DNA from: an uncultured Mycoplasmatota bacterium
GTDB taxonomy: Bacteria > Bacillota_I > Bacilli_A > RF39 > UBA660
Assembly: GCA_900553855.1 (NCBI GenBank)
Contig: USFG01000003.1
Span: 12,630 to 76,629 of the forward strand
Direction of reading: 5' to 3'
DNA: 64,000 bases
The position numbers and the translations under genes are program-made. The notes under the pieces were generated by a model, which was given only the letters and a program-made list of their open reading frames with translations, did not search any database and was not told where the DNA came from. Positions 14,608-48,036 of this stretch are shown here, piece after piece. The stretch's first letter is position 1, and every line of letters begins with the position of its first letter.

Positions 14608-14618
14608 TTTTAATCCTC

Positions 14619-21049: not shown

Positions 21050-21128
21050 TCTATTCCTCTATCTTTATCTTATAACAATAATATATCACGTTTTTTGAAC
21101 GACTTTTATAAATTATGTATTATTTTGA

Positions 21129-21920
21129 CTATTTAAATCTTTCCCTATAACCACATCTTTGGCATAAAGGACTTACTAATTCATGTCTATTAAACCCATT
21201 TAATATTTCTTGATATTTACTAGAATTAATAATTTCATTTATGTCTTGCTTAAATACATTTCCTAATTTATTATCACCATTATTATCTAAGCAACAACTA
21301 ACAACATCTCCATTAACAAGGATTCCAATTTGATCTTTTAAGGCTTTACATGTTCCTTTAGTGCTAATAACAGGTATGTTCAAACTTGGCCAATCAAACT
21401 TTTTATCAACGCTTAAAAATGTATGATTATTTAGGTTATTTCTTGAATTTTTTCTATTAATTTTAACATTATAATGTTTATCTAAAAAATCAAATATTTC
21501 TTTATTATCTAAATCATTCCATAACCTAAAATTAATATATGTATTCTTGATATTATCACATAACTTAACTATATCTTTTATTTCTTCTAAAGAATTAAAA
21601 CTATGTAATGAGATATTTATTTGTCTTATTTTATTATTATTCATAATATCTAATTTGTCTTTTAATAATCTTCCATTAGTAGTTATATTTATATTTAAAT
21701 TATTCTTATTTGCTATTTTAATTATTTCATCTAGATTAGGATGCATTAATGGTTCACCTTTAATATGTAAATAGATGTGATTGGTGTAAATCTTGATTTT
21801 ATTAATTATTGTAGTAAAATTCTCAATATTCATAAATTCTTTTTCTCTTTTGATTTGAGGACAAAATGGGCAATTTAAATTACATACATTGGTTATTTCA
21901 ATATATATTCTTTTATACAT
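21129..21920 (-). CDS. Radical SAM / SPASM-domain protein
   Basis: CNLNCPFC (CxxxCxxC) at residues 13-20, GEPLMHP, and a C-terminal Cys cluster C..CC...C..C (SCCLDNNGD...CQRCGY). Confidence 0.85.
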   Translation of the reverse strand: MYKRIYIEITNVCNLNCPFCPQIKREKEFMNIENFTTIINKIKIYTNHIYLHIKGEPLMHPNLDEIIKIANKNNLNINITTNGRLLKDKLDIMNNNKIRQINISLHSFNSLEEIKDIVKLCDNIKNTYINFRLWNDLDNKEIFDFLDKHYNVKINRKNSRNNLNNHTFLSVDKKFDWPSLNIPVISTKGTCKALKDQIGILVNGDVVSCCLDNNGDNKLGNVFKQDINEIINSSKYQEILNGFNRHELVSPLCQRCGYRERFK

Positions 21921-21935
21921 ATTATGTTTTCCTCT

Positions 21936-23843: not shown

Positions 23844-23904
23844 TACCCTATGGTAAGTATATCATATAATAAATGTTTGTAGCAATTTTTTAAGATTTTT
23901 AGCA

Positions 23905-23930
23905 AAATAAAAACCAGATAACCTATCTGG
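23905..23930 (-). terminator. Rho-independent terminator closing the T4SS-like locus
   Basis: Stem CCAGATA/TATCTGG (23914-23920 / 23924-23930) with a 3-nt loop and a T-run on the minus strand. Lies 3 nt after the stop of 23934..24491. Confidence 0.5.
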
Positions 23931-23933
23931 AAT

Positions 23934-24491
23934 TTATGCAGCACTAAATAGAATTCTTGTTTCAAAGTTTTTATTTGCTTTAGTATTAGTGGTGTAATAA
24001 TAGATTACATAGGTGTGAACACTATTTTGAGATTCGGTACTAAAGAAACCATTACCTAAATCCATTACACTTTGACCTTCTTGTTTATTTAAATAGTATT
24101 TTGTTTTGGCATCAGCAAATTCTGTTTTAACACCGTTTTCATCGGTTTTACCACCTAGGATAAAATATACTTCATTATCTTCATATTCGTTATAGTTTAC
24201 TAGTAGAGATAACTTATAATTAATAATATCGGTTGCACTGTTATTTGTTCCTGTTAATGAAAATGTTTTAGAACCAATAAGTTCTCCTTGTTTTTCATAA
24301 TCGCTTGATTTAAATACTGGATTATTGCCTTGATAAGCAGCAATCATTTTACCATCTTTAACTTCAATAACGTCTAATTGGACACTTCCATCTAAACCAC
24401 TAGTCATATATGAAAAGCTTGTTCCTATTGTAACAACGACAATGATTGCAACTAACATTATACCTAATAAGGTTTTATTCATTTTATTCAT
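23934..24491 (-). CDS. TasA/camelysin-like (SipW-type signal) secreted protein, last gene of the T4SS-like operon
   Basis: Start at ATG 24491 behind a GAAGGTGA SD; the track's longer ORF start is unsupported. The N-terminus is MNKMNKTLLGIMLVAIIVVVTIGTSFSYMTSG, followed by a beta-rich region (FSLTGTNNS, YKLSLLVN). Confidence 0.6.
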   Translation of the reverse strand: MNKMNKTLLGIMLVAIIVVVTIGTSFSYMTSGLDGSVQLDVIEVKDGKMIAAYQGNNPVFKSSDYEKQGELIGSKTFSLTGTNNSATDIINYKLSLLVNYNEYEDNEVYFILGGKTDENGVKTEFADAKTKYYLNKQEGQSVMDLGNGFFSTESQNSVHTYVIYYYTTNTKANKNFETRILFSAA

Positions 24492-24545
24492 TTTATCACC
24501 TTCTATATTAATATTACTAAATTTAATAGAAAACTTCAATTATTT

Positions 24546-26810
24546 TTATTCACTAAAGAAATCGTCAAAGTATTCATCATCACTTGGATCGTTAACAACT
24601 TTACTATCTTTATCAACGACAATCTTAGGTTCATCTTTAACATTGTTCTTGGAATTATCACTTTGTTTAAAGAAATCATCGAATTTTTCAACCATAGTTG
24701 AATCTAGTTTATCGTAATCTGTAATTTTATTTGCTTGATTATTTTGTTTCTTTTGCTCTTCTTGTTCTTCTTTTTCTAATTCAGCAATTTTAGCATCGAT
24801 CTTTTTTAATATGTTGTCAACATCAAAATCGGGCTTAGAATTTATATTTTGTTCATTAGCACTTTTTTGAATCATTGGCAAATCTAAGAAGTCAGTTTTA
24901 TCTAAATCTTTTTTATCAGTTGGTTTTTGGTTTAACAAACTATTAAAGTCAAATGGAACACTATTTCCGCCAAATGGAGTATTATTACCAGATGGTTTAT
25001 TTAATCCTTCAAAAATATTACCAATTGGTTTTCCACCACCAAAACCTGCTCCATTCATTCCCATTCCACCATTATTTACGGATTCTAGAAACTTACTTTG
25101 CTTTTGATCTTGAACATATTTTTTAAAATCAAATATTTCAACAGGCGTTTGTTTTCTTTCAATAAATGGGGATTCTTCATCACTATGTCCCCAATTAATT
25201 TCATAACTTGGTGTTAATTTTGTTTTGTAGGGATTCATTCTTTGTCTTAAAATAACAACTTGGAATTTTTTTAGTTTTTGTAAATCACTTGGTGTTAATA
25301 ATGGACGTGATGCGGTTTTTTCTTTTTCTTTTGATTTAATTTCACCACATAATTTACTTATTTCATCTAAATCAGCTAAATCACTACTATTAATAAATAT
25401 TTTATTACCACAGTTACCTTTAATTGTATCGGCTTGTTCTTTGCCATATACATCATTTAACTGAGAAAATCCTTGAATAATAAAGGTAAATCTTATATTT
25501 CTTGAACGAGCTGCTGAAACCATTGCTGTAACATCTTTAAGTGGTGGCATGTTGGCAAACTCATCTAAAATAAAGTTGGTTCTTATTGGTAATTTTCCTT
25601 TTGGTGATTTGTGAGCAACATCAACTAAAACTTCATAAGCTTGTTTTAAGAAAATCGTTGCTAGTGGATGGTATGTTGTTTTTTCATCATGTATTACGAC
25701 GAATAAAGCTGTCTTTTCAGTACCTATTTTATGCATATCAAAATCACTATAACTAAGCATTTGACTTAAGTTTTTTTGTGTTGTAAATTTTTCCATTTTT
25801 TCACTAAATACGGATAACACACTGGTTCTTGTTTCAGTTGGACCAGTAATTGTTGATTTAGCAAAGTTATATGGTGTTGAATCTTTACCCTTTAAATTAA
25901 AGTATTCTGTCGAAAAGTTACTGTTCATTCCCATTTTTTCTTCACCGACAGCGGCCATATAGTTTATTGAATTAATATTAATATATTTTTCTTCAGCATC
26001 TTGAAATAAACCAAGTGCTAAACCATTGAAGTATCCCATACTAGCATTTCCCCAGAATGGATCATTTGCTTTAGGATCATTAACCATATTAAATGAAACG
26101 TCTTTTAATAACTCAATTGCTTTATCTTCGTTTCCTTGTTTATATAGATCATAAGGTATTGCCAAGGGATTCCAAGCATTTCCCATTTGTGGATCACGGA
26201 AATTTAATGTAATAATATTGTAACCTTTACTTCTTAAGAAATTAGCATGATCTCTATATAATTCACCTTTGGGGTCAGTAATAATCATTGATTCACCTTT
26301 ACGGCCTAAGCTTTCAATCATCGGCTCAACTACACATTGACTCTTACCGTTACCAGTTGATCCAATAACTAAGGTATGATATGAACCGTTATCTACCCAC
26401 ATAGCCTTGCCGTCATTAACCATAGGAACACCACCATATTCACTAGTTAATTCACTAATAACAACTTTTTTGACATCATCAGCATTTTTCATTTCTTTAT
26501 CAGTGGTGAATCTGGTATAACCTTTTTCCTCTTCTTTTTCACCTATTTTTAAACCTATTCCTCTACCTTTTTCATGGTCGAATATATATGAAGATATACT
26601 TAAAAATATTGATACTAAAACAGCAATAAACACAAATAAGGTAGCTGGTAAATAAGGTGGAAATAATCCAGCAAAAAAATTCAATCCATATAATTTTCCC
26701 TCGTTTAACAATGATGATAAGTTAACTACTGCTAATGAACATAAAATTAATAAAAATATACTATATATTACAAACATTATTAAATCTTTAGATGATACTC
26801 TAAATTTCAT
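24546..26810 (-). CDS. virD4: Type IV coupling protein (VirD4/TraG family)
   Basis: N-terminal TM helices, Walker A VIGSTGNGKSQ, ITDPKGELY, NAWNPL and Walker B-like FILDEFANMP. A ~200-aa low-complexity C-terminal tail ends in DDEYFDDFFSE. Confidence 0.9.
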   Translation of the reverse strand: MKFRVSSKDLIMFVIYSIFLLILCSLAVVNLSSLLNEGKLYGLNFFAGLFPPYLPATLFVFIAVLVSIFLSISSYIFDHEKGRGIGLKIGEKEEEKGYTRFTTDKEMKNADDVKKVVISELTSEYGGVPMVNDGKAMWVDNGSYHTLVIGSTGNGKSQCVVEPMIESLGRKGESMIITDPKGELYRDHANFLRSKGYNIITLNFRDPQMGNAWNPLAIPYDLYKQGNEDKAIELLKDVSFNMVNDPKANDPFWGNASMGYFNGLALGLFQDAEEKYININSINYMAAVGEEKMGMNSNFSTEYFNLKGKDSTPYNFAKSTITGPTETRTSVLSVFSEKMEKFTTQKNLSQMLSYSDFDMHKIGTEKTALFVVIHDEKTTYHPLATIFLKQAYEVLVDVAHKSPKGKLPIRTNFILDEFANMPPLKDVTAMVSAARSRNIRFTFIIQGFSQLNDVYGKEQADTIKGNCGNKIFINSSDLADLDEISKLCGEIKSKEKEKTASRPLLTPSDLQKLKKFQVVILRQRMNPYKTKLTPSYEINWGHSDEESPFIERKQTPVEIFDFKKYVQDQKQSKFLESVNNGGMGMNGAGFGGGKPIGNIFEGLNKPSGNNTPFGGNSVPFDFNSLLNQKPTDKKDLDKTDFLDLPMIQKSANEQNINSKPDFDVDNILKKIDAKIAELEKEEQEEQKKQNNQANKITDYDKLDSTMVEKFDDFFKQSDNSKNNVKDEPKIVVDKDSKVVNDPSDDEYFDDFFSE

Positions 26811-29168: not shown

Positions 29169-31214
29169 TTAACTATTGCATCCATTAGTAACGTAATTAT
29201 AGTAGGATCTAGCATTATTTACTCTTGTTGTATCACATTGGGTGTGTTCTGTAGGATTTTCAAAATTATGGCAAAAATTTGATGTGATACTATCAACAGA
29301 TTCACTACCAGACATGATAGCATTATATAAACCACTATAACCGCTTTTAAGTTCTATAAACAAATAACTTATTTGGTTACCAGGATCACCTATTGATACT
29401 CCATTTTGTTTTGCGGAGTTTAGTAATCCGGCTTTTCTAGTGGAAAATGTCCATTGACATAATCCATAACCCGCATCATCATTTGCAAAATTAGTATATG
29501 TTCCATTATCAACGGCGGCTGTATAACTTTCATCAGTATGGCCAAGTGGCCCTTCAAAAGTATTTTGTAAATTAATATAATTGAATGCACTTTCAGCATT
29601 TATATTTGACATAATTGCCGCAATACCATTATCAGATGCTCCATATTCTTTTAAAGTTAAACAAACTGTTTGAGTCTTTGTTCCACCATTAATAGTACCT
29701 ACAGTTGATGGTTGAGGTCTAGGATTTTGGCTCGAAATATATGTGTTAGGATTTACTCTTGCTCCTGATGATATTTTAATTTCAAAATGAAGAGCTTTTT
29801 CATTAGTATCACCAGTTGTACCCATAGTACCAAGAACTTCTCCCTGAGTTACACTTTGTCCATCAGTAACATATACTTGATCTAAATATGCATATGTTGA
29901 ACTCATTCCATCAGAATGACTTACAACTACCATATTTCCATAGCCTGAATTACATGTTTTATCTCCTGATTCACAATTATTAACTACTTTAGAAACTACT
30001 CCAGACTTAATGCTTATTATATTAACTAAATCTTCACTTGATCCAATATCTATTCCCTCATTAGAACCAGGACTATAATCCTTAATTATATAGGCAGATA
30101 CTGGATTACCTTTAGCAAATTTTTTACCATTTTCCTCAGTAATTTCAGTACTCCCAATTGGATAATAATATTTATTATCAACACTAGTAAAATAAGTTAA
30201 ACTTTCAGGATTACTTCTATAAAACAATTCTAGGTTGTATTTAATTGCATCTATTATTTCTTGTCTTTCTTCAACTATTTTATCATGATATTTGTTATAT
30301 AGTTCATCATCATTTTCCATTGCCGATTCTAAATCTTCTAAAGTTTTGTAGCCAGATTCATCTACAATATGGGAAAAACGATATTGTAAATGAGGTTTTT
30401 TATCAAAATATTCACTTGTTTTTAAAAATTCCCAATATGCATCTTCACTAACTGTTTTATTATTAGCAACTGTATATGTGCCACCGCGATTTAAACATTC
30501 TTGATGTTTTTCGCTTCGAGTTATTCCAAAAAAATTGGTTAATCCAGATTTAACTAATAATTTTTCACCAAATGAGGCCATAGTAACTGAATCGACTGCT
30601 TTACAAGTAAAAGTATCACCTTCTTTGTGAAGTTCTCCTTGAGGACACGTTGGTACTGATTGATTATTTTCATTAATTTCATAAACTGGAGCAGTTGCAA
30701 CACTACATGTTGCCTCATAACCAATCATCGCTTTAATTAAAATTTTAATTGCATTTGATTCGGATGTTAGGGATGTATATCCCTCTTCCTCTTCATTATC
30801 ATCTATAGATATTTCATCATTTTCATTTTCAAAATCAAATGAAATTTTATCGAACCATCTTTTATAAAAAGCATTATCATCTCTAAATGAATCAGCATTT
30901 AGGCCATAATAAATAGTTGCAATAATTATTTCATCTTTAATATATAAACCACTACGTTCATATTTAGCTAACATCTTATATAATTTAGTATAAAATTTCT
31001 TTTGGCTTTTAATAGTTTGTTCAACACATTTTTCACTATCTTCTTCTTTTTCACATGTTCCTGACCAATAATTTTTAAATTGTTCAGCGAAGTCTTCCCA
31101 ATTAAAACTAGCGTAGTTATATCCATCTGCTTTTACATTATTAAATATCAAAAAAAGTGATATACATAATATCATTTTTATTAAAAATGGAATACTTTTA
31201 TTTATCACTTTCAT
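29169..31214 (-). CDS. Secreted cell-wall hydrolase: unknown N-domain, degenerate M23/LytM domain, C-terminal lysozyme-like (phage-tail-lysozyme type) domain
   Basis: Has a signal peptide. The M23 core is GYGNMVVVSHSDGMSSTYAYL..GQSVTQGEVLGTMGTTG. NEGIDIG replaces HxxxD and KALHFE replaces HxH. The C-terminal domain has GIAAIMSNINAESAFN...GYGLCQWT. Confidence 0.8.
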   Translation of the reverse strand: MKVINKSIPFLIKMILCISLFLIFNNVKADGYNYASFNWEDFAEQFKNYWSGTCEKEEDSEKCVEQTIKSQKKFYTKLYKMLAKYERSGLYIKDEIIIATIYYGLNADSFRDDNAFYKRWFDKISFDFENENDEISIDDNEEEEGYTSLTSESNAIKILIKAMIGYEATCSVATAPVYEINENNQSVPTCPQGELHKEGDTFTCKAVDSVTMASFGEKLLVKSGLTNFFGITRSEKHQECLNRGGTYTVANNKTVSEDAYWEFLKTSEYFDKKPHLQYRFSHIVDESGYKTLEDLESAMENDDELYNKYHDKIVEERQEIIDAIKYNLELFYRSNPESLTYFTSVDNKYYYPIGSTEITEENGKKFAKGNPVSAYIIKDYSPGSNEGIDIGSSEDLVNIISIKSGVVSKVVNNCESGDKTCNSGYGNMVVVSHSDGMSSTYAYLDQVYVTDGQSVTQGEVLGTMGTTGDTNEKALHFEIKISSGARVNPNTYISSQNPRPQPSTVGTINGGTKTQTVCLTLKEYGASDNGIAAIMSNINAESAFNYINLQNTFEGPLGHTDESYTAAVDNGTYTNFANDDAGYGLCQWTFSTRKAGLLNSAKQNGVSIGDPGNQISYLFIELKSGYSGLYNAIMSGSESVDSITSNFCHNFENPTEHTQCDTTRVNNARSYYNYVTNGCNS

Positions 31215-31233: not shown

Positions 31234-33027
31234 TTATAGTCCGCCACCTGAACCAAATGAATCTAGTTCTTCTTGTGTTAAGATTACATTAATTCTCATA
31301 CGACGGTTTCCACATACAAATAATGCTTCACCTTGACTATATGTTTTAATACTTTCTTTTTCGTTATCATTTAAGTCGATTAATCTTGCTAAATCTTCAA
31401 CTGCTTGTTTACGTAATCCCATAACCAAATAATAAGATGCATTATCAAATATAGCTTTACCATGAACAAATACTTTTTCAGCTGCAAAGTCGGTAGGTTG
31501 TTGAGTAATAATTATTGTTCCAGTATTATATTTACGACTTCTTCTTTGAACTTGGGCTAAGAATTCAGCACCTAATTCATTTCCAGCACTTAATAAGATA
31601 TGAGCTTCATCAACGTACATAACTGTGTTATTAGATTTATCTAAACATAAACTCCAAGCATATTTTAATATGTTAAAGAATAAAGCATTTCTAATATTTG
31701 CATCACTATTCATTAATTCTTTAATATTAAATACGATAAAATTACTATCGGCTTTTAAAGATGTATGACCATTAAAGTAATATCTTAATTCTCCAATAAA
31801 TGGTCTAACTCTAAGTTCTAGACGTTCCATAACATCTTTTTCTCTTGTTGCTTCTGGCATTGATAATAATTTACCTTTAATAGTTGAATAAACATCATCA
31901 AATGTTGGATATTCATCTGAACTTAAACTACTAAAATCTGAGTTAAAATCAATATTAAATCTTTTATATGTTTCTTGACATACCTCACTAAACATTTGTA
32001 ATACGTCATCTTCAATGGTTGGATAATAGTATTTCATAAATGCTTTTAATGATTGAAGAGTTCTAGTTAAAACTGAGTAACCAGCACCTTCCTTAATTTC
32101 ATCTTCATCAGCATCCATAATTACTTCTAAAGGGTTAATTAAACCAAAAGCTCCACCTTTACCTAAATCAATAAAGTCACCATTAAAGATTTTGGCCATT
32201 TCTTCAAGTTCGCCTTCAGGGTCAATAGCGATTATTTTACAATTATTTCTAATATGAGTTCTTAGTAAAAGTTTAGCAGTTGTTGATTTACCACTACCTG
32301 ATGTTCCTAAGATAATAACATTGGCATTATTTCGGTTATATTCTTTTTTCATTTGATATAAGAATTGGTTAAATAATACAACACCGCCTGAAAAATCAAC
32401 TCCTAATAATGTACTTGATCCAGGATCTTTGATGCTATCGAATACGAATGGGTACATAGCAGCAATTGTTGGAGCAGGAATTGGAATACCTACTCTATCT
32501 TCGATATCTTGTTTAGGGAATATTGGAAGCATTGATTTTAAAACTTTTTCTTGTTCGAACATCATAGGAATTCCACGCATTCCCATGCTATCTAAATAAT
32601 TTCTAACTTGCATTTTTTTATTTTCAAGTTCTTCTTTACTGTCAGCAGTTATCATAACATGCATTTGAAAATCCCATATTTTTGATTGAGTTGCTGCTAA
32701 CATTTGAACAAATGCCTCTAACGATTCATAGTCTTGTCTAAATCTCTCTTGAAGTGTTCTATCATGTTCTTTTTGATATCTTTCTTTTAAATCAACAATT
32801 TCTTTATTAAGCATTTTTTGCATTGATGAAAAAGGAATAGGAATATGCTTAACAACAACTTTAATACCAGGAATATTTGTGACATTTGATAAGAATCCTG
32901 GTTGAATTGTTTTAGGATAACTTATGATTGTCAAAATAGTTGCATATTTATCACTAATCATAAAATCATTAACATTAAATTTCATTCCTTTTGGAGCTAT
33001 TTCACTTTTTAAATTAGCACTACTCAT
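31234..33027 (-). CDS. virB4: VirB4-like conjugation ATPase, C-terminal (ATPase) portion
   Basis: Walker A ILGTSGSGKST, Walker B VMYVDEAH, and IIITQQPTDF. 597 aa, i.e. lacking the usual ~190-aa N-terminal domain, which is encoded by the upstream ORF. Confidence 0.88.
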   Translation of the reverse strand: MSSANLKSEIAPKGMKFNVNDFMISDKYATILTIISYPKTIQPGFLSNVTNIPGIKVVVKHIPIPFSSMQKMLNKEIVDLKERYQKEHDRTLQERFRQDYESLEAFVQMLAATQSKIWDFQMHVMITADSKEELENKKMQVRNYLDSMGMRGIPMMFEQEKVLKSMLPIFPKQDIEDRVGIPIPAPTIAAMYPFVFDSIKDPGSSTLLGVDFSGGVVLFNQFLYQMKKEYNRNNANVIILGTSGSGKSTTAKLLLRTHIRNNCKIIAIDPEGELEEMAKIFNGDFIDLGKGGAFGLINPLEVIMDADEDEIKEGAGYSVLTRTLQSLKAFMKYYYPTIEDDVLQMFSEVCQETYKRFNIDFNSDFSSLSSDEYPTFDDVYSTIKGKLLSMPEATREKDVMERLELRVRPFIGELRYYFNGHTSLKADSNFIVFNIKELMNSDANIRNALFFNILKYAWSLCLDKSNNTVMYVDEAHILLSAGNELGAEFLAQVQRRSRKYNTGTIIITQQPTDFAAEKVFVHGKAIFDNASYYLVMGLRKQAVEDLARLIDLNDNEKESIKTYSQGEALFVCGNRRMRINVILTQEELDSFGSGGGL

Positions 33028-33574
33028 AAGTTACCACCGTCCCAAATTCATTTTTCTGTCCACCATTTAAGAAGTTTTGCAATAAGAATTTTAAATCTTC
33101 ATCGCTTGCTTTACTTGATATTAATCCAATACTTGCTAATTGTGTTATTAATTGTTGAACACGTTTATTAACTACATCTAAATTTTTATCTCTAAATAAT
33201 ATGTAATATTCTGTATCAACTACATTGTATTCATTACCTGAAAATAATTCGGCCTTTTGAATATCTTCAGAAATTAATTTTCTTACAGCTTGTGACTGGG
33301 CATTATCAAAATCAAGTTGTAATTGAGATAAATACATTTTTATATCTACCGGTCTATCGGCAACAATTAACCAAAATTCATAATCAATTGTGTTATAAAA
33401 ATTTCTAAAGTTAAATATAATATTATTTTGAGTTTGATAATCTAAAATAAAGATATTTTTAGGCTCAACTTTGATTCCAGTAACCATCCAATTATTATCT
33501 AGAATTATCATTCCATTTTCTATTTTTTTTACTGGTAACCAATCTTCTGTAAATTTATTTTGTGTCTTCGCCAT
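33020..33574 (-). CDS. VirB4-like ATPase, separately encoded N-terminal domain
   Basis: FTEDWLPVKKIENGMIILDNNWMVTGIKVEPKNIFILDYQTQNNIIFNFRNFYNTIDYEFWLIV follows the N-terminal pattern of Gram-positive VirB4/TraE ATPases. Has an 8-nt overlap (ATGAGTAG) with the ATPase ORF. Confidence 0.65.
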   Translation of the reverse strand: MAKTQNKFTEDWLPVKKIENGMIILDNNWMVTGIKVEPKNIFILDYQTQNNIIFNFRNFYNTIDYEFWLIVADRPVDIKMYLSQLQLDFDNAQSQAVRKLISEDIQKAELFSGNEYNVVDTEYYILFRDKNLDVVNKRVQQLITQLASIGLISSKASDEDLKFLLQNFLNGGQKNEFGTVVTYE

Positions 33575-33875
33575 TTCGAATACACCAACCTTTCCAACGA
33601 TATTCTTTTTGACCTGTAAAATAATTATAAATATTTTTTATAAATGTTCTAACATTGTGTTGGTTTGGAAGTGGTATTACTAGGAATGCACAAAATAACA
33701 TTGGCATTATTATTGATACAATTCCTAGTAATGTACTTGTACTAACCGCAAATAATAATATAAGTGTTATTGTAAAACCAGTTCCAACTATTATTAAATC
33801 GGTGCTATTAAACATTCCTAATATTAACATTGATCTTTTTGAGTTAGCCGGAATTAAATAATCATTATTTCCCAT
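33555..33875 (-). CDS. Small two-TM protein in the VirB3/PrgI/TcpE position
   Basis: 106 aa with two adjacent TM helices. Lies immediately upstream of, and overlapping, the VirB4 N-domain gene. Confidence 0.5.
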   Translation of the reverse strand: MGNNDYLIPANSKRSMLILGMFNSTDLIIVGTGFTITLILLFAVSTSTLLGIVSIIMPMLFCAFLVIPLPNQHNVRTFIKNIYNYFTGQKEYRWKGWCIRNGEDTK

Positions 33876-33886: not shown

Positions 33887-36832
33887 CTATTTTTTATCTT
33901 TATCTAAGACAGCCTTTTTAATTTTATCCCAGGCAAGATCTTCTGCTGATTTGGTTTTAACTCCATCATTACTAATTTTTTCGTTTTGTGCATATTCTGC
34001 ATTATAAACTTTATCAAGTTTTCCGTCCTTGTCATTAGTATGTATTCCCGTGATACGACCTTCTTCATGTTTTAATACACCTTTGGCAATTATGTTGGCT
34101 GCGGCTTCATTAGCTTCGATCATAACTTTGCGTTCAACATTATCATAATTATCACGATACAATTGTTCTTCTACACCAGCCCTTAATTGTTGATCATAAA
34201 CAAATTGTCTAGCACCTTCTGTTTGTTGTTCTTGAATTAAAACAGTTCTAGTAATTTCGTCTTTGTTGCAAGCATTGGCTACTTGTTTTTGAACTAAATT
34301 ATCACGTACTTTAGCTATACTTTCATTTAATTTATCGAATACTTCGCCAGCAATTTGTTGACGTTTATCTGCTTTAGCATCAGCAACAGCCTGATCAGCT
34401 TTAGCTTTTAATTCTTGAGGAGATAAATTTCTAATAATTCCTCCTTCATCAACTGTAGATTTACTATATATTTCATTTCTAATTTTAGTTTCATCAGCTT
34501 GGGTAAATTCTGCACTTAGTCTTGATTCAACTTCACTAGTAGCACTAGCTTTCATAGTTTGTTCTGTTGCAGCAAATGTTGCCTGGTTAGTTGCATCTAA
34601 TGCAATTTTTTCTGATCCACCTGCTTTAGCAATTGTTTCAGTAACTTGCGTTTTAATTGCTGAGTTTACATTTGCTTGTTGATCAGCGGTTAATGTAATA
34701 TTTCCTACTCCACCAGCAGCAGTAATTTGTGCATCTACATTTGCAACAGCAGTTGCATTAATTTTTCCCATTGAACTACTATCTATATTTAATTTTGAAA
34801 TATCACCTTTAACGGAAGCCATAATTCCATCAGCTTGTACTTTAGCATTTCCTTCTAATTGTAATCTAACACTTTGATCGCTAATTGCTGCTTGTAATCC
34901 CTTACTATCTATTTCAGCCTTTACAAGTGCTTTTGTTTTAGTATCTGCTTCAACTTTAACTTTGGCTATTGCATCTTTGTTTCCAGCTAAAATTGAAGAT
35001 TGATAATCTGCTATTACACTTTCTCTAGATAGGTATGAGTCAATTAAACGTTTTTCATTTGCATTAGTAGTTGTTGCAGATATTTGGCTAAGCTTTTCAT
35101 TAATTTTAGCTTTTCTTTCTTCGGGAGAAAGTGTGATTCCTTTAGTTGCTGCTTCTCTATCTACTTCTGCAGCAACATCTTTATATGTTTGAGAATTTGC
35201 TGCAAATTCAGCATTTTTAGCCATATAGTCTCCTGCCTTCATACGTGCTGATGCAACATCATTTTCTCTAGGTATTTCATGTCCAATAGCTTTATCTCTT
35301 ATTGCAGCATTTTGTTCTTTGGCATGTTGCTTTACATTATCTTCATAGGCTTTACCATATTTTTCATTTACCTGTGTTCCAAACGATTTACCACCAAAGA
35401 ATCCCTGTTTTTTACCATAACCGTATGTGTTTGTATATACACTTTCACCTTGACTTTTAAATTGTTTAAGTCCTCCACCACCGGCATACCCTTTAGCAGC
35501 TCCTTGTTTTGCTGCTGCACCGGCAGACATATGAGTCATTCCTTTGGCTGATTTTAATCCAAGTTTGTTGCCAACTTTCATTGCAGCATTGTTTCTAAGA
35601 GCACTCCATGCTCCACCAGCAGCACCAGCAGCAGCACCTATTCCTTGATTAGCTTTGTCTAATCCTTTTCCTATTATTCCACCGACGCCAGGTGCTTCTC
35701 TAACTCCTGATAATTTCTTAGCAATTGATTTAGGTGAAAATCCTCCACCTTCACCAAATGTGGTTCCTAATAGATTTTCTAATAATTTTGGTGCGTCTTT
35801 AGCAAACAATAAAACTCCAATTATTAAAACAACGTTTGCAAGTAATTTAACAAAACCAGTTACTCCTTCACTATTTCCGAATACACCACCGGTATTATTT
35901 CCTACTGAAGTTGCCAAGATATTAATAAGAAACATTGCAAAATAAATTGTAATTAAACGCATGAATAAACTCAAATAAGTCTTAATTAAATTGTCAAGCC
36001 ACTTTGAAAATACTCCACCACTTGGTTTAACTATATAAGCCATAATTGGAATAGGGGCAATTATCTGTAAAAAGGCCATCTTTGCAACTCTTATACCTAT
36101 ATCAAACACATAAGATACAAACATAAGAAGTGCAACTACACCACTAATACTCGAAATAATATAAAGATAATTTATATGAGGGGTATCTTTTTTTAATGAA
36201 TCAAAGAGGGTAGAATTTTTTGCTAAGTCGCTTATCGTTCCCGTTTGGGCATTTGTTACTCCGGTTTTATATGCTTCACATACATCTAACGAGCTGTCTT
36301 TCCAGCAATCAACGTAATCTCCGTTATCATTAATTGGGTAAAAAAATGCGGTGAATATTTGAACTGCGACTTTCGAACCCATACTGTCCTCTCTAAGTTC
36401 TGAAGAGCCATTTCCTGTACCCAATATTATATTTTCAATTACTTGATCATCAATAATATGATTTTGAATTTTAGTCATATATGTAAATACCATACTGTAT
36501 GCTGTAAGCATAACAATTGCGATAACTGCATTTTTTAATATTCCCTGCATTGATTTATCGCCGCCCGCACTTATCTTATCGGGATTCATGATATTTAAAA
36601 TAATATTATAAGCAAGAATAAATAGCATTCCTATTCCAAGTATAACAGAAATACGATTAACCATTGTTGTTATGTTAGCATTTTCACTGTTATATAAACT
36701 TGCTTTAGCAATTATTTTAAATAATTGATATGAAAATGCAATTAAGGAGTATATTAAATTATCTATAAAGATCCATAGTGAATACCAAGCACTAATAAAA
36801 GCATCACCAATTGTTTTTGTCCAGCCAAACAT
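33887..36832 (-). CDS. Extended VirB6/TrbL-like polytopic membrane protein with ~630-aa Ala/Gln/Lys-rich C-terminal region
   Basis: The N-terminal ~350 aa carry 6-7 TM helices, followed by a Gly-rich hinge (GGGFSP..GVGGIIGKG..AAGAAGGAW). The long helical, low-complexity tail differs in composition from the Asn/Ile/Lys-rich proteome. Confidence 0.65.
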   Translation of the reverse strand: MFGWTKTIGDAFISAWYSLWIFIDNLIYSLIAFSYQLFKIIAKASLYNSENANITTMVNRISVILGIGMLFILAYNIILNIMNPDKISAGGDKSMQGILKNAVIAIVMLTAYSMVFTYMTKIQNHIIDDQVIENIILGTGNGSSELREDSMGSKVAVQIFTAFFYPINDNGDYVDCWKDSSLDVCEAYKTGVTNAQTGTISDLAKNSTLFDSLKKDTPHINYLYIISSISGVVALLMFVSYVFDIGIRVAKMAFLQIIAPIPIMAYIVKPSGGVFSKWLDNLIKTYLSLFMRLITIYFAMFLINILATSVGNNTGGVFGNSEGVTGFVKLLANVVLIIGVLLFAKDAPKLLENLLGTTFGEGGGFSPKSIAKKLSGVREAPGVGGIIGKGLDKANQGIGAAAGAAGGAWSALRNNAAMKVGNKLGLKSAKGMTHMSAGAAAKQGAAKGYAGGGGLKQFKSQGESVYTNTYGYGKKQGFFGGKSFGTQVNEKYGKAYEDNVKQHAKEQNAAIRDKAIGHEIPRENDVASARMKAGDYMAKNAEFAANSQTYKDVAAEVDREAATKGITLSPEERKAKINEKLSQISATTTNANEKRLIDSYLSRESVIADYQSSILAGNKDAIAKVKVEADTKTKALVKAEIDSKGLQAAISDQSVRLQLEGNAKVQADGIMASVKGDISKLNIDSSSMGKINATAVANVDAQITAAGGVGNITLTADQQANVNSAIKTQVTETIAKAGGSEKIALDATNQATFAATEQTMKASATSEVESRLSAEFTQADETKIRNEIYSKSTVDEGGIIRNLSPQELKAKADQAVADAKADKRQQIAGEVFDKLNESIAKVRDNLVQKQVANACNKDEITRTVLIQEQQTEGARQFVYDQQLRAGVEEQLYRDNYDNVERKVMIEANEAAANIIAKGVLKHEEGRITGIHTNDKDGKLDKVYNAEYAQNEKISNDGVKTKSAEDLAWDKIKKAVLDKDKK

Positions 36833-36844: not shown

Positions 36845-37261
36845 CTATCTTACACAAGTGTTTCCCTGACCCAGTGTTAATTCTAATAAAAAATTTAATA
36901 CTGAAGGTAGCAAATATAAAAGTACCACCAGTGCTAATCTAGTTGTAAACTTTTTGGCAGATTTTTGCAATCCTTCAGCCTGCTTGCTTGTTATTGATAC
37001 AACAAAATCATAACTAGATAGTGCTAAAGTTAACAAAGGGGCAACTATTTTAAATACATTAAATATTGATTGCAAATCTTGACCAAATGAACCTAGTGTA
37101 CTGCAATCTGTATTAGAGTTTTCATTAGCTAGAAGATTTATACCATAAGTATCATTATAATCTAATTTAGATTCAATGCTATCAGCATTTACACTTATAA
37201 AACAAAATAAACATGAAATTATAATAGATATATATATAATTTTATTTTTCATAATTACCAC
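36845..37261 (-). CDS. VirB2/TrbC-like pilin-type membrane protein, paralogue 1
   Basis: Signal peptide, N-proximal Cys (TDCSTLGSFG), two TM helices flanking a polar loop (SITSKQAEGLQKSAKK), and a C-terminal NTCVR. Confidence 0.5.
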   Translation of the reverse strand: MVIMKNKIIYISIIISCLFCFISVNADSIESKLDYNDTYGINLLANENSNTDCSTLGSFGQDLQSIFNVFKIVAPLLTLALSSYDFVVSITSKQAEGLQKSAKKFTTRLALVVLLYLLPSVLNFLLELTLGQGNTCVR

Positions 37262-37339: not shown

Positions 37340-37693
37340 TTAATCTATTTGTTGTTGTGCTTCTGTACACTTGTATGGAGTTAAGATACATTTTTTACAT
37401 GTATTAAAACCTAGTTCATCAGATGCATCAGTAAATCCATTAACAAGTCCAAATATCCATAAAATAATAGATGGAGATAAGAATATTAAAATTCCAGCTG
37501 CTATTCTTATTCCTAATGATTTAGTATTCTTTTTAATATCATCATCTTTTCCAGATGTTACAGCTTTTCCTAAATCTATTGCTCCTAGTGCAACTATAAT
37601 AACAGGAATAGCAACTTTAAAAATTAATAACACATATCCTAATACTTGTACTACTGCACTCATTTTTGTACAAAAACTTCCTAATCCGCTCAT
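37340..37693 (-). CDS. VirB2/TrbC-like pilin-type membrane protein, paralogue 2 (no signal peptide)
   Basis: Strong AAGGAGAGAG SD. The product starts directly at MSGLGSFCTK, followed by TM1, the loop GAIDLGKAVTSGKDDDIKKN, TM2, and a C-terminal NTCKKCILTPYKC. Confidence 0.55.
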   Translation of the reverse strand: MSGLGSFCTKMSAVVQVLGYVLLIFKVAIPVIIVALGAIDLGKAVTSGKDDDIKKNTKSLGIRIAAGILIFLSPSIILWIFGLVNGFTDASDELGFNTCKKCILTPYKCTEAQQQID

Positions 37694-37767
37694 TTTCTCT
37701 CTCCTTTACATCTAATAAAATTATAAACTATTTATATAATTACGTCAAATATTTTACAATAATATTT

Positions 37768-38736
37768 TTATATTTTTTGTTGTTTATTAAATCCTAATTT
37801 AATTAACAACTTATCTATAGATAGTAATCTATCTTTTTTATCATCAAAATTATTTAAATTATAATAAACTTTTAAATCAGTTTCTTTTTCAAAATAATTG
37901 ATTTCTTCATCTTTTAAAGCACTGCGATTTAACACTATTTTTATATCATTTAGTTTATCTTTATATTTATTAATATTTTTGATAAATTTTGATATTCTAA
38001 TAATACCAGGCTCTAATAAATAAATAATGTCTGTGCATATGTTATTCTTATCTTCAAATTCATTTAAATCAATAATTATTGCATCTATTCCTTTTAATCC
38101 TTGAATCTTTGTTTCAGCTTCTGTGTAGTCGTTACAAAATATTATATCAGGGTTTCTAAAATACATAGCATCAAAACCATTTAGTTCAATACCTTTAACT
38201 TTATAGTTAAACGCTAATTGTTTAACCATTTGTTGCATTAATGTTGTAGATCCGGCACCTTCACTTAGGTTTTTAATACCTATTATTTTCATTTCATTTA
38301 CTTTAAATGCTGAATTAGTGCTACCGATTGAACTATTTAATTCACTTGTAAATGTTGTTGTTTGAATATATTTTTTTACATCTTCATAAGTATTAGATCT
38401 ATTAACTAAGAAACTAACTCCTTGTGAATTACTTGTAAAATTATAATAACCATTATTAATTAACTGGGTTAAAAATTCTTTACTATTACAATAAGCACTA
38501 TCATTTAAAAGTAAAATTACTTTGTCTTTGCCAAAGTAATTTAAAAATTCAAATAAATCAAAACTTGAAAAATAATTTTTTATTGCAGTTATATCAATTA
38601 TTACTTTGTTAAAATAAAAATTTACTAGTTCTTTTTCAACACTGTTAACGTCATAGACTCCATTTAATACTTTAATAATATCTATTGTTAATGAGTTTAC
38701 TACTCTTGTATTTTCATTTACAATTACTAAATTCAT
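37768..38736 (-). CDS. TadZ/CpaE-like protein: receiver-like N-domain plus ParA/MinD-fold domain with degenerate Walker A
   Basis: The N-terminal ~120 aa have a pseudo-receiver pattern (VIIDIT...KVILLLND). This is followed by IIGIKNLSEGAGSTTLM in place of KGGxGK[ST]T, IIIDL (Walker B-like), and LNRS. Confidence 0.5.
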   Translation of the reverse strand: MNLVIVNENTRVVNSLTIDIIKVLNGVYDVNSVEKELVNFYFNKVIIDITAIKNYFSSFDLFEFLNYFGKDKVILLLNDSAYCNSKEFLTQLINNGYYNFTSNSQGVSFLVNRSNTYEDVKKYIQTTTFTSELNSSIGSTNSAFKVNEMKIIGIKNLSEGAGSTTLMQQMVKQLAFNYKVKGIELNGFDAMYFRNPDIIFCNDYTEAETKIQGLKGIDAIIIDLNEFEDKNNICTDIIYLLEPGIIRISKFIKNINKYKDKLNDIKIVLNRSALKDEEINYFEKETDLKVYYNLNNFDDKKDRLLSIDKLLIKLGFNKQQKI

Positions 38737-38745
38737 ATAACCACC

Positions 38746-39210
38746 TTAATCTTTTGCAAAATATACTGCCTTGCTTTCTCCGGTAACTGGAAATGTAAAT
38801 GCGTTATCTAAAATCGGAATATCAAATTTAAAAAACACGGTTACTCTATAATATTTTCTGTTTAAAGTATCTCCTTCAATCGATCTTTCGTAAACACAAT
38901 ATTTATATTTATCAGCATTTCCTTGTTTTTCATATCCCGTTAATTTACCATTTATTGCTCCATCTAGATAATCATCTCCAGTATCAGTACACTTACCATA
39001 TACATAATATCCTGTACTGTTAAGATATTTTACTATTTTTTCCTGAGTTTTATCTGTTAATCCTTCATTTTCTTCAATTAAAGATATAATTTCATTTTTA
39101 ACTTTAAAAGCTTTTGAGTAATTAACAGATAGAGCAAGATAACTAGTGAATAATACAACAAAAGTAATTACAATTCCAACTAGCCAGGCTCCACCAATTG
39201 ACTCTCTCAT
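38746..39210 (-). CDS. TadE-like pseudopilin candidate
   Basis: Short charged leader MRESIGG followed by a hydrophobic helix AWLVGIVITFVVLFTSYLAL. The leader resembles that of the upstream Flp-like gene (KEASGE). Confidence 0.4.
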   Translation of the reverse strand: MRESIGGAWLVGIVITFVVLFTSYLALSVNYSKAFKVKNEIISLIEENEGLTDKTQEKIVKYLNSTGYYVYGKCTDTGDDYLDGAINGKLTGYEKQGNADKYKYCVYERSIEGDTLNRKYYRVTVFFKFDIPILDNAFTFPVTGESKAVYFAKD

Positions 39211-39224
39211 ACTATCTTATAATA

Positions 39225-39488
39225 CTATCCATTATTTGTGTTTGAACTTGTATCTTTTTCAACTGGGCAAACAACATCTTTCATATCGCCATTAGCATCA
39301 TAATATTTACATTTACAAGTACTTTCATTTCCAGAACATTCACAATTAAATTTATTAGCACATTTTGTTTGATTTAAAATATTTACCTTTATTTGTGGCC
39401 AAACAAGTGCTGTAAAAACACCTCCAATAGCCGCAATAGCAACAACTGTGATAGCTGTCATACTTAATTCTCCTGATGCTTCTTTCAT
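39225..39488 (-). CDS. Flp-like small pilin candidate with Cys-rich C-terminus
   Basis: Strong AAGGAGGA SD. The leader MKEASGE is followed by LSMTAITVVAIAAIGGVFTALVW (compare Flp ...G/VTAIEYGLIA, but without EY). The C-terminal part carries 6 Cys. Confidence 0.45.
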   Translation of the reverse strand: MKEASGELSMTAITVVAIAAIGGVFTALVWPQIKVNILNQTKCANKFNCECSGNESTCKCKYYDANGDMKDVVCPVEKDTSSNTNNG

Positions 39489-39528
39489 ATATAAATTCCT
39501 CCTTTATTTTATAATTTTATTATATATC

Positions 39529-39578: not shown

Positions 39579-39989
39579 TTATTTATTATTTGATTTTGGA
39601 CAATTACTTGGATTAGATATGCATGCTAAACAAGTTTTGTAGTCAGCCGGTTGTTTATTGAAAGCATCTACAACAAGATTAACAAATGTTGGTAAAAAGA
39701 ATACTGCAAAGCCTATTACTATTCTTTTTCCAAGTGTAATTATTTGATTTTTTAAATCATCATCTTTACCGCTTGTTACTGCTTTATATAAATCAAATGT
39801 TCCCATTGCTATTATTAATAATGGCACTATTGTTCTTACTATTAAGATTGAGTAAGACACTAATTTTAATGTGCTTCCAAAATCTGAGCAAAAATTGTTT
39901 GCTACAGGAGCTTCATTTTCTGCTAGTACATTAATATAACTAAAATTTAATAATAAAATTAATAATTTACTCATAATCATATTTTTCAT
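39579..39989 (-). CDS. VirB2/TrbC-like pilin-type membrane protein, paralogue 3
   Basis: Signal peptide (..NVLA/ENE), NFCSDFGST, TM1, the loop GTFDLYKAVTSGKDDDLKNQ (near-identical to paralogue 2), TM2, and a C-terminal KTCLACISNPSNC. Confidence 0.55.
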   Translation of the reverse strand: MKNMIMSKLLILLLNFSYINVLAENEAPVANNFCSDFGSTLKLVSYSILIVRTIVPLLIIAMGTFDLYKAVTSGKDDDLKNQIITLGKRIVIGFAVFFLPTFVNLVVDAFNKQPADYKTCLACISNPSNCPKSNNK

Positions 39990-42786: not shown

Positions 42787-42809
42787 GAAAAAAGCAGTTA
42801 TTCTGCTTT
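42787..42809 (-). terminator. Rho-independent terminator of the dnaB-dnaI operon
   Basis: Stem AAAGCAG/CTGCTTT (42791-42797 / 42803-42809) with loop TTATT and a T-run on the minus strand. Confidence 0.55.
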
Positions 42810-43005
42810 AAGTTTATTATAAGTTATTAAAAAGAAATTATAATATCTATATTCAGTATTCAGTGCATTTATAATAAAAATCTTTTAATACCAGTCACGA
42901 TTTTAATCAATCCAATTATATGCTATTTAAATTATCTTTTCAAAATTTTATTGAGAATTTTGCCACTTTTACTACTTTTTTTCAATGAAACACTAATAAT
43001 ACAAA

Positions 43006-43917
43006 CTACTTTCTTCTATTTTCTCCTATTAATTCTTTATTATTAGTTAAAAATTTAATTCTTTCCATTATTCGTCTAGCCTTAATTTTTTCTTCTTCAT
43101 TATTTTTAATAATAAAATGTTCTTCTAATTCATTTAATGTTAAGTTAGATGTAAAAAATGTACTTAGCTTATTATCCATTCGATATTGTAAAATAGTTCC
43201 TAAAATTTCATCTCTATTCCATAAAGAGGTTGCTTCAGCTCCAATATCATCTAATAGTAATAAATCACACTTCTTTATTTCATTAAGTCGATCATTAAAA
43301 TCCTCATTGCCAAATCCTTCTTTTAAACTTCTAAGTAGTTCAGGATAATAAACAATAATAGAATTATATCCATCTTTAGCAAGTTCGTTTAATAAAGCAC
43401 TTACAATAAATGTTTTACCAGAACCAAAAGAACCACTTAAATATAAACCTTTTTGTTTATTATCTTTTTTATAATCTTTATAAAATTTAGTTATCCATTT
43501 AATCAGTTCTACTCTATCTTTACTTGATGGGTCAATATCCTTAATTCTTGCTTTTTTAATTTCATATGGCATTTCAAAAAATTTAGATTTAATTTCTTCT
43601 TTTTCTTGTAAATCTTTTTTCATATATTTGCAAGCAACATAATTAAAATCAATCTTTCCTTCTAGTACTTTAGGATAATAAACACAACCTAGACATTTAT
43701 TTTTACAGCCTAATAATCCTTTACAATTTTTACAGTTATTAAGTTCATTAACACTTCTTTCTAATTTAGATGTATATTTATATGCTATATCATCTTTAAT
43801 TTTTAAAGAAACTACTAACTTTTTAAAGTCTTCATTTTTTAAAGCTTCAATATAATCTTTTTTTAAAGACATTTCTAAATTATTATTTTTGTAATTATTA
43901 ATATTTAATTTATCCAT
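43006..43917 (-). CDS. dnaI: Primosomal helicase loader DnaI
   Basis: N-terminal Cys cluster (CKNCKGLLGCKNKCLGC), Walker A GSFGSGKTF and Walker B LLLLDDIGAE. Has a 1-nt overlap with dnaB. Confidence 0.88.
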   Translation of the reverse strand: MDKLNINNYKNNNLEMSLKKDYIEALKNEDFKKLVVSLKIKDDIAYKYTSKLERSVNELNNCKNCKGLLGCKNKCLGCVYYPKVLEGKIDFNYVACKYMKKDLQEKEEIKSKFFEMPYEIKKARIKDIDPSSKDRVELIKWITKFYKDYKKDNKQKGLYLSGSFGSGKTFIVSALLNELAKDGYNSIIVYYPELLRSLKEGFGNEDFNDRLNEIKKCDLLLLDDIGAEATSLWNRDEILGTILQYRMDNKLSTFFTSNLTLNELEEHFIIKNNEEEKIKARRIMERIKFLTNNKELIGENRRK

Positions 43918-47514: not shown

Positions 47515-48036
47515 TTAATTCTTTTTATTTAAATATTCTTCATCGATATTAATATCTTCTGTTACATTTGAATTATCTACTTCATAGTCATCATAATCAT
47601 CTAAAACATTGATTTTAACTTTTATATCTCCAACTATTTCTACGCCAAGTTCTTTTTCAACTTTTAGTTTTAAAGTATTTCCTTCAACTTCAACAGCACT
47701 GGCACTTGGAGCCGTTAAACTTCTAACTATTATTTCATTTGTATCAGTAATTTTATCTTTTAAATTAACATTTATAATATCACTGTAATTAAATGTCCTA
47801 GCTATAACATTTGTTTTGGTGTTGTTATCATATGAATACCAAATATTTACATCATATGATCCATTAACAGCAACTTTACCATTGGAATTATATCCTTTAA
47901 ATGTATGATTTATTACCCAACAACCTAAAACATTACTTATATTTTCTTCTAGCAAGATACTGTATTCGTCTGTACTTGTTTTTTTACTTTTACCGATAAC
48001 AGCTTTAGTAACTATTTCTTTATAATTATTATTCAT
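47515..48036 (-). CDS. cotE: Outer spore coat morphogenetic protein CotE
   Basis: Collinear with B. subtilis CotE: YKEIVTKAVIGKSKK, LGCWVINH, GSYDVNIWYSYDNNTKTNV, and an acidic C-terminal tail. Confidence 0.85.
   Translation of the reverse strand: MNNNYKEIVTKAVIGKSKKTSTDEYSILLEENISNVLGCWVINHTFKGYNSNGKVAVNGSYDVNIWYSYDNNTKTNVIARTFNYSDIINVNLKDKITDTNEIIVRSLTAPSASAVEVEGNTLKLKVEKELGVEIVGDIKVKINVLDDYDDYEVDNSNVTEDINIDEEYLNKKN

Follow-up and report, generated by a model that had tools for sequence, protein, structure and literature searches.

Candidate Tad-derived pilin and scaffold genes within a chromosomal type IV secretion locus of uncultured gut Bacilli

How do genes that resemble parts of a Tad pilus come to lie in the middle of a type IV secretion system (T4SS) locus, and what might they do there? 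The question is raised by a stretch of 64,000 nucleotides from an uncultured Mycoplasmatota bacterium (GTDB lineage Bacteria; Bacillota_I; Bacilli_A; RF39; UBA660; contig USFG01000003.1, positions 12,630 to 76,629), hereafter called the window. In it, three adjacent genes for proteins of 87, 154 and 322 amino acids (aa), separated by gaps of 14 nt (87/154) and 9 nt (154/322), stand among T4SS genes (Table 1). An initial annotation had read them as an Flp-like peptide rich in Cys, a TadE-like protein and a TadZ-like pseudo-ATPase that were inserted into the locus, and the three minus-strand open reading frames (ORFs) are indeed present at the coordinates that it gave. We consider it likely that the trio encodes an Flp-type prepilin, a TadE-like minor pilin and a TadZ/CpaE-like scaffold, which would derive from a Tad system of the Firmicutes type (type IVc) and belong to an ancestral, chromosomal Tad-T4SS locus without a relaxase. 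Synteny, predicted fold and conservation are the basis for the gene identities; the functions as filament and hub are what we infer.

The evidence that carries this interpretation is gene order in relatives. A scan of species-representative genomes returned 48 loci (numbered below with the prefix L), all of them from metagenome-assembled genomes (MAGs) of uncultured gut bacteria. Most of these are labelled Bacilli, Tenericutes/Mollicutes or Erysipelotrichaceae, and several are labelled otherwise, e.g., Muribaculaceae or Clostridium. In the loci that we call full-type (L043 and L046-L051), genes for an RcpC/CpaB protein (PF16976, 29.7 bits, above cut-off), a T2SSE ATPase (PF00437, 98.9 bits) and two membrane proteins (~300 and ~260 aa) that resemble TadB/TadC in topology and position directly precede either the trio or just the 87- and 322-aa genes, with DUF5411 just upstream of the set. 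More than 7000 proteins are close homologues of the ATPase, and NCBI and JGI name them TadA/CpaF; DUF5411 was noted earlier where gut Clostridia carry CpaF/PilC loci (PMC9523054). On the other side, the full-type orthologues of the trio lie directly before the genes for T4SS_pilin, TrbL_4/VirB6, TraC-like and VirB4 proteins.

Three further loci (L052, L053 and, from Ca. Faecimonas, L137) were reached from homologues of the full-type TadA ATPase. Their first half consists of genes for a sortase, a protein of ~900 aa, DUF5411, RcpC, TadA and the proteins of 300 and 260 aa, and their second half of genes for a small pilin, a minor pilin, a TadZ-like protein, one or more T4SS pilins, TrbL_4/VirB6, a VirB3-like protein, a TraC-like protein, VirB4 and a hydrolase. 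This array adjoins greA on the chromosome in L052 and L137; the sequence of L053 ends short of that region. Additionally, L112 holds a compact full-type version that ends in VirD4. All three orthologues are found directly after the cpaB-tadABC genes in L043, L046-L048, L050, L052, L053, L112 and L137.

The window itself has another order, hereafter the window type, in which a VirB2-like gene is followed by the 87-, 154- and 322-aa genes, two more VirB2-like genes and those for VirB6, a VirB3-like protein, a TraC-like protein, VirB4 and the hydrolase. This order is kept in ~40 species-level genomes, usually directly downstream of dnaB-dnaI, and the identity levels of the trio in window-type loci are comparable to those of other structural genes of the locus. 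From the full-type synteny we conclude that the trio is Tad-derived and that the juxtaposition of Tad and T4SS genes is ancestral and recurrent. It is gene order, therefore, that decides the predicted identity of the trio, as profiles recognise none of the three proteins; by the same token, the composite locus is judged to be ancestral and the trio an integral part of it. The earlier interpretation consequently stands with regard to the identity of the genes, which synteny and fold support, and to the Tad/T4SS mosaic, which is real and recurs across related loci. The term "inserted" has to be abandoned, since the composite is ancestral.

The second line of evidence comes from the 322-aa protein. 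An AlphaFold2 model built from 36 sequences (predicted local distance difference test, pLDDT, 84.8) begins with beta-alpha repeats (aa 1-125), which a disordered linker joins to a ParA/MinD-like C-terminal domain (aa 149-322). Foldseek returned 43 matches for it in the PDB at E <=1e-3, mostly ParA, MinD, FlhG/FleN, HypB and NifH-type SIMIBI proteins that align with the C-terminal domain (E 4e-6 to 1e-3); two dethiobiotin synthetase chains are also among them. The match at rank 4, 3fkq, is an "NtrC-like two-domain protein" of E. rectale (395 columns, E 4.9e-5), which we take, from the match in organism and architecture, to be the published TadZ structure of that species. As the alignment spans 395 columns, it covers both domains, and, together with the two-domain model, it supports at the level of prediction the TadZ/CpaE architecture that had been proposed. 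The TadZ of E. rectale is composed of an atypical receiver (REC) domain and an atypical ATPase domain (PMC13170226), and CpaE/TadZ proteins, which share these two domains, form dimers that ring CpaF (PMC13170226, PMC6668835).

The 322-aa protein has 1297 homologues, all unannotated, and a profile search of 1.84 billion representatives recovered 474 clusters (50% identity). This search did not connect the protein to canonical TadZ, as only the 322-aa family itself appears among the 150 matches listed, and neither single-sequence nor family-profile searches of PDB sequences returned anything relevant. The motif SEGAGSTT, correctly described before as a Walker A without its two lysines, occupies the P-loop position in the predicted structure (residues 158-165, in the loop that joins strand 150-156 to helix 163-174). 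In the family, the consensus at this site reads T-E-H-A-G-A-T-T; G162 and T164 are invariant, both lysines are missing throughout, and a Walker-B-like hhhhD (D223) is retained. Because the P-loop without lysines is common to orthologues encoded beside tadA, it appears to predate the loss of the motor genes described below and to be no symptom of decay; it is, on this comparison, a trait of the family and not a consequence of that loss. With both P-loop lysines lost, ATP hydrolysis by this protein is very unlikely. The C-terminus of many orthologues reads G(L/I)FG(L/F)F(K/R), a hydrophobic tail reminiscent of MinD-type membrane-targeting sequences; the copy in the window lacks this tail and ends in NKQQKI.

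Two side observations concern the same family. Variants of 440-520 aa (P0388, P0431, P0463 and others) match the profile in two stretches and have no Pfam match, which suggests that their N-terminal region is extra or duplicated. Besides, the MAG RUG11246, which also carries a full locus (L032), has a second copy of the family without pilins (L030, 3802-12337). This copy adjoins type VII secretion genes, namely those for an EssC-like ATPase of the FtsK family (1544 aa), a YukD-like protein of 84 aa and an LXG-like protein, so that more than one secretion machine may make use of the scaffold family.

The third line of evidence is the conservation of the two small proteins. The N-terminus of the 87-aa protein is near-invariant among 42 orthologues from related loci (MKEASGELSMTA[IV][TA]VVAIAAI), and so is that of the 154-aa protein among 38 (MRE[AS]IGG[TA]W...VNYSKAFKVKN). 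The leader MRE[AS]IGG of the latter parallels the MKEASG of the former, so that the similarity between the leaders of the two products, already pointed out from the window, extends to both families. Leaders and trio order are under strong purifying conservation. The 87-aa protein has a single hydrophobic segment (aa 11-29) after MKEASG, i.e., a leader followed by a helix, as in Flp prepilins. Its orthologues range from 52 to 92 aa; the distant ones, which follow the TadC-position gene in full-type loci, are Flp-sized (52-69 aa). All six Cys claimed for this product lie in its C-terminal part, and this Cys-rich module is found in the window-type lineage only. The only Pfam signal is a sub-threshold match of one orthologue (L047) to PF13400, the TadE/G-like N-terminus (E 0.0035).

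For the 154-aa protein, AlphaFold2 gave a model (pLDDT 81) with helices at 3-47 and 53-66 and four antiparallel strands, a predicted topology that is pilin-like. Two Cys are invariant in alignments of its family, and none of its 146 homologues has a Pfam annotation. The possibility that this family is a paralogue of DUF5411 was considered and dropped, because the likeness found by hhalign is confined to the first 15 residues (probability 2.8%). The three trio families are unrecognised by current profile libraries. A pilin-like small ORF (..LKEAAGEANMTVITIIL.., with a Cys-rich tail) and a TadZ-like gene also stand alone in L044 (9691-11035), where a YfhO-like membrane protein is encoded upstream and an aminoacyl-tRNA-synthetase-like gene lies downstream (by-eye reading); there are no Tad or T4SS genes within 10 kb of the pair.

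Several results weigh against the interpretation given above. The profile searches for Flp/Fap, TadE and CpaE that had been proposed as a check were all negative: PF04964 (Flp/Fap) matches neither the 87-aa protein nor its scanned orthologues, PF07811 (TadE) matches neither the 154-aa protein nor four divergent orthologues, and the 322-aa protein, 36 relatives and 10 long variants have no Pfam or NCBIfam match, including any CpaE, TadZ or ParA profile. The Glu-Tyr pair of Flp (G/XXXXEY, Glu5-Tyr6) follows the Gly in no orthologue of the 87-aa protein. With regard to structure, the 154-aa model has no PDB match below E 0.3 in Foldseek and no pilin neighbour, and the TM-scores of the 322-aa model are low (~0.35), so that Foldseek by itself does not tell TadZ apart from plasmid ParA or MinD. 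With regard to gene content, L043 carries a Tad module without VirB4 within 10 kb, and T2SSE, T2SSF and Peptidase_A24 have no Pfam match in any ORF >=100 aa of the 64-kb window, in agreement with the absence of TadA/CpaF, TadB/C and TadV that had been noted from its sequence. Finally, the functional link between trio and T4SS, which we favour because the trio kept its place in the T4SS array once the motor genes were gone, has adjacency only as its basis.

Could the three genes, then, be unrelated to Tad? VirC1 of Agrobacterium, a ParA-like protein, brings the relaxosome to VirD4; it has a single domain, is catalytically competent and retains a canonical Walker A. The 322-aa protein might likewise be a VirC1- or partition-type ParA that recruits a substrate to the coupling protein, and the small proteins might be ordinary bitopic subunits of the T4SS, similar to VirB8 or PrgL, whose signal anchors stay uncleaved. 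Such a reading would account for the failure of every Tad profile, for the presence of plasmid ParA, ParF and MinD at similar E-values among the top Foldseek matches, and for a weak Foldseek match of the 154-aa model to a VirB8-like protein (E 1.7). Like VirC1, the 322-aa protein has a ParA/MinD fold and is an accessory protein encoded with a T4SS. By contrast, it has an additional N-terminal receiver-like domain and a putative Tad ancestry, and the motif KGGxGK[ST], which VirC1 and ParA need, is absent from its whole family. Additionally, the orthologues adjoin tadA and cpaB, and, in L043, do so without any T4SS, and neither a relaxase nor a ParB partner is present in the window. We therefore regard this explanation as highly improbable, and a Tad origin of the trio as the reading to be preferred.

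If the trio is Tad-derived, what became of the rest of the Tad system in the window lineage? By tblastn, cpaB, tadA and the TadB/C-position genes are found neither in the window nor in L001-L042, nor in window-type loci centred on VirD4. DUF5411 is retained in L019 and L024; in the latter, the trio starts 87 bp after it, and the gene order is that of the full type minus cpaB-tadABC. Because of this match, we read the absence of these genes as a loss by deletion from the locus, although they may have been relocated elsewhere in the genome. L024 shows, as a separate matter, an insertion right after the first T4SS-pilin gene (11565-19300) that interrupts the locus and contains a 514-aa recombinase-like gene (by-eye reading) and small genes that are phage- or plasmid-like.

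A motor encoded elsewhere is central to a second alternative, in which two independent machines are neighbours: together with a Tad motor, a platform and a TadV-type peptidase from other parts of the genome, the trio would form an ordinary adhesive Tad pilus. The Tad module of L043 and the solitary pair of L044 are in line with this, as is the fact that tadV often lies elsewhere in monoderm Tad loci. Neither the window nor the inspected loci encode an A24 peptidase; the canonical type IV prepilin signals of two proteins encoded at 14619-17749 (KNKG/FVLLE in the one at 14619-17027) imply that a peptidase of the PilD/ComC type exists somewhere in the genome. Against two independent machines, the modules are contiguous, on the same strand and separated by short gaps in every full-type locus examined that has enough flank, except L043. 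Furthermore, after the loss of cpaB-tadABC the trio has not moved with the motor and is still wedged between T4SS-pilin paralogues, and there is no tadA within the ~45 kb that span window-type loci. This arrangement seems to us rather doubtful.

The same loss may be viewed from the opposite side, as a capture of Tad parts by the T4SS. VirB4, with VirB6 and VirB3, would then extract and assemble, or else anchor, the Flp-like pilin, and the TadZ-like protein would scaffold VirB4/VirD4. The clean absence of cpaB-tadABC, when pilin, minor pilin and TadZ-like gene are retained and strongly conserved, is in line with this model, and so are the unusual conservation of VirB4 (80-92% identity) and the strong ribosome-binding site and promoter-like site that the 87-aa gene has of its own; in addition, chimeric systems that combine VirB4/VirD4 with type IV pili or type VII secretion are a recognised concept (PMC12857230). 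However, the locus already has three VirB2-like pilins, the expected substrates of VirB4, and the motor could simply be encoded in another part of the genome. To our knowledge, moreover, no VirB4 assembles a pilin of a type IV filament. We consequently think that a capture of this kind is unlikely.

The interpretation that we prefer, of Tad-derived parts integral to an ancestral Tad-T4SS locus, would work as follows. In the window lineage, cpaB, tadA, tadB, tadC and DUF5411 would have been lost from the locus, leaving the trio among the VirB2-like genes, upstream of those for VirB6, the VirB3-like protein, VirB4, the hydrolase and VirD4. Both small proteins would insert into the membrane through their N-terminal helix, and the leader that they share, M[KR]E[AS]xG, might be recognised by a single processing or assembly factor. 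The 87-aa protein would be the major, Flp-type pilin and the 154-aa protein the minor pilin, and they would build a short surface filament or a pseudopilus with a Cys-stabilised tip. By analogy with the CpaE rings around CpaF, the 322-aa protein would act as a non-hydrolysing oligomeric hub at the cytoplasmic face of the membrane, where it could dock either of two partners, the secretion ATPases or a Tad motor whose genes lie elsewhere. The filament, in turn, might provide cell contact or a scaffold for the neighbouring T4SS channel.

Monoderm Tad systems of Firmicutes (type IVc), including the CpaF/PilC/DUF5411 loci of Roseburia, Ruminococcus and Eubacterium (PMC9523054), are among the closest known systems. 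They share with the full-type loci the order DUF5411, RcpC/CpaB, TadA, two platform-position proteins, pilin, minor pilin and ParA/MinD-like protein; the fold predicted for the 322-aa protein can be aligned with 3fkq across both domains, and the pilin leader ends in Gly and is followed by a hydrophobic helix. They differ from the locus under study in that the trio has no detectable profile similarity to Flp, TadE or CpaE/TadZ, the pilin has no Glu5-Tyr6, both lysines are missing from the P-loop, the window locus has no motor, platform or alignment genes, and the trio is joined into a T4SS locus.

The pairing of a transfer machine with a pilus of the type IV filament class, thought to provide cell contact, is found in R64 (IncI; a Dot/Icm-like T4SS and a thin T4b pilus) and in PAPI-1, whose VirB4/VirD4 machine is accompanied by an essential T4b pilus (PMC12857230). 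Both belong to diderms, are mobile, bear a relaxase and have type IVb pili with a PilB-type ATPase of their own, whereas the window locus is monoderm, chromosomal, apparently inherited vertically, of the Tad type, without a relaxase and, in this lineage, without a pilus ATPase. The T4SS of Patescibacteria (PMC12102498) are similar in another respect: they are chromosomal and mostly relaxase-less, consist of monoderm MPF-FATA-like VirB4, VirB6, VirB3, hydrolase and VirD4, include several tandem VirB2-like paralogues, have a conserved position near replication genes and occur in uncultured hosts that often have reduced genomes. They belong, however, to another phylum, and that report mentions neither Tad genes embedded in the loci nor a TadZ-like protein; the terms "Tad" and "TadZ" never occur in it.

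Searches of the full-text literature gave no description of a Tad-T4SS composite, in monoderms or elsewhere, nor of a Tad-VirB4 composite in Firmicutes or Bacilli. Gram-negative mobile elements that pair a T4SS with a type IV pilus are already known. This composite appears to be chromosomal, vertically inherited, relaxase-less and very widespread in uncultured gut Bacilli. Its conservation and distribution, and the retention of pilins and hub without a motor encoded in the locus, make it of real interest. The window lineage would be a natural experiment on what TadZ-type hubs and Flp-type pilins do without an ATPase of their own. Should it turn out that VirB4, in place of a PilB/TadA-type ATPase, assembles or anchors an Flp-type filament, the machine would be a hybrid that links the type IV filament superfamily to that of type IV secretion.

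Table 1. Positions of the trio, its signals and the surrounding genes in the window
Feature	Position	Strand	Basis or remark
87-aa Flp-like prepilin candidate	39225..39488	(-)	ORF; leader MKEASG, single hydrophobic helix, C-terminal six-Cys module
154-aa TadE-like minor-pilin candidate	38746..39210	(-)	ORF; leader MRESIG(G), hydrophobic helix, 2 invariant Cys
322-aa TadZ-like protein	37768..38736	(-)	ORF and predicted fold
Receiver-like N-terminal domain of 322-aa protein, ~aa 1-125	38362-38736	(-)	
ParA/MinD-like domain of 322-aa protein, ~aa 149-322	37771-38292	(-)	
Degenerate P-loop SEGAGSTT, aa 158-165	38242..38265	(-)	Both Walker A lysines missing
Promoter-like TTGATA-17-TATAAT	39547-39519	(-)	Upstream of 87-aa gene; consensus match only
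Shine-Dalgarno sequence AAGGAGGA	39497-39504	(-)	8 nt before ATG of 87-aa gene; consensus match only
Three predicted surface/anchor proteins: 384 aa (Cadherin-like domains), 210 aa, 268 aa	39967..42732	(-)	
136-aa VirB2-like T4SS pilin paralogue	39579..39989	(-)	Upstream of trio; cross-matches 117-aa family
117-aa VirB2-like T4SS pilin	37340..37693	(-)	Downstream of trio
138-aa third paralogue of T4SS-pilin-like family	36845..37261	(-)	
981-aa VirB6-like polytopic channel protein	33887..36832	(-)	
106-aa two-transmembrane-segment VirB3-like protein	33555-33875	(-)	Assignment inferred from size, topology and position
184-aa TraC-like protein	33020-33574	(-)	Orthologues match PF26593 TraC-like
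VirB4-type ATPase	31234..33027	(-)	Pfam AAA_10, P-loop_TraG, CagE_TrbE_VirB
Cell-wall hydrolase, M23 peptidase and lysozyme	29169..31214	(-)	Pfam
Three conserved bitopic/unknown proteins, 172, 156, 437 aa	26860..29157	(-)	Interval between hydrolase and VirD4
VirD4-type coupling protein	24546..26810	(-)	Pfam T4SS-DNA_transf, 185.6 bits
243-aa protein	17018-17749	(-)	Prepilin signal MNKKG/FIATS
802-aa protein	14619-17027	(-)	Prepilin signal MSIKNKG/FVLLETIIV; ALK/LTK glycine-rich domain

The T4SS array in which the trio stands runs on one strand from ~42.7 kb, downstream of dnaI (43006-43917), to VirD4 (24546-26810), the last conserved gene of the module, and all genes of the trio region are on the minus strand. 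The core set of a monoderm MPF-FATA-like T4SS (VirB4, VirD4, a VirB6-like protein and a hydrolase) is present. The place of sortase, DUF5411, cpaB and tadABC in full-type loci is occupied here by the three predicted surface proteins. Of the VirB2-like proteins that flank the trio, the 136-aa one has a signal peptide and two hydrophobic segments, and the 117-aa one belongs to a family in which seven of nine members match PF18895 T4SS_pilin (best E 9.5e-6), the window copy being without a match. The 981-aa protein matches the NCBIfam conjugal transfer model MMCAP2_0566 under its curated cut-off (E 6.4e-12), and its orthologues match PF19597 TrbL_4.

As to expression signals, the strong Shine-Dalgarno sequence claimed for the 87-aa gene was found (AAGGAGGA, 8 nt 5′ of the ATG). 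Promoter-like matches are frequent in this AT-rich DNA (26% GC; 111 sites found vs 95 expected). Two further best matches (11 of 12) are likewise intergenic, one at 37720-37748 that precedes the 117-aa T4SS-pilin gene and another at 42915-42943 that precedes the first of the surface-protein genes beyond dnaI. At 42791-42809 there is a hairpin that resembles a terminator.

Is the array part of a mobile element? The gene content of the window is chromosomal (thrS, dnaB, matching DnaB_2, dnaI, cotE, ftsEX with a pcsB-like gene, rmuC and frr, as well as mutS, mutL, miaA, ftsK, ruvX and mltG), and the locus lies between dnaB-dnaI and frr/mutS with uniform GC. The same dnaB-dnaI neighbours are found in at least 12 species-level genomes. 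In Pfam, no window ORF >=100 aa has a relaxase or integrase domain. Nor is the region a known mobile element, as megablast found no match to it in collections of plasmids and phages. VirB4 is 80-92% identical among genomes in which DnaB is 62-71% and the 322-aa protein 42-48% identical; being more conserved than DnaB, it suggests that the T4SS has a core cellular, non-mobile role and does not serve plasmid transfer. In three metagenomic contigs (L076, L077 and L081), dnaB-dnaI is located downstream of VirD4, as opposed to upstream of the locus in the window; the locus thus keeps its link to the replication genes in another arrangement. Separately, the window has the spore-coat gene cotE (47515-48036, Pfam E 4.7e-43), in a lineage whose MAGs carry the labels Bacilli, Tenericutes or Mollicutes; the organism probably has a cell wall and forms spores.

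The genes in the interval from VirD4 to frr (13619-14158) are specific to the lineage. Those at 14.6-24.5 kb were considered as a part of the system and set aside as not core, because they are kept only in the close relative L058 and because the module ends at VirD4 in L063, where murE follows. In L070, a homologue of the protein with the glycine-rich domain is encoded after VirD4. An exact-sequence look-up of the 635-aa protein encoded in this region gave no record. It belongs to a block (17750-24539) that also encodes an anchored protein of 201 aa, a radical-SAM/SPASM enzyme, a C39-like peptidase that carries an Ig-like domain, a LysM-like protein and an unknown protein of 285 aa, and that may be a module for peptide maturation or export.

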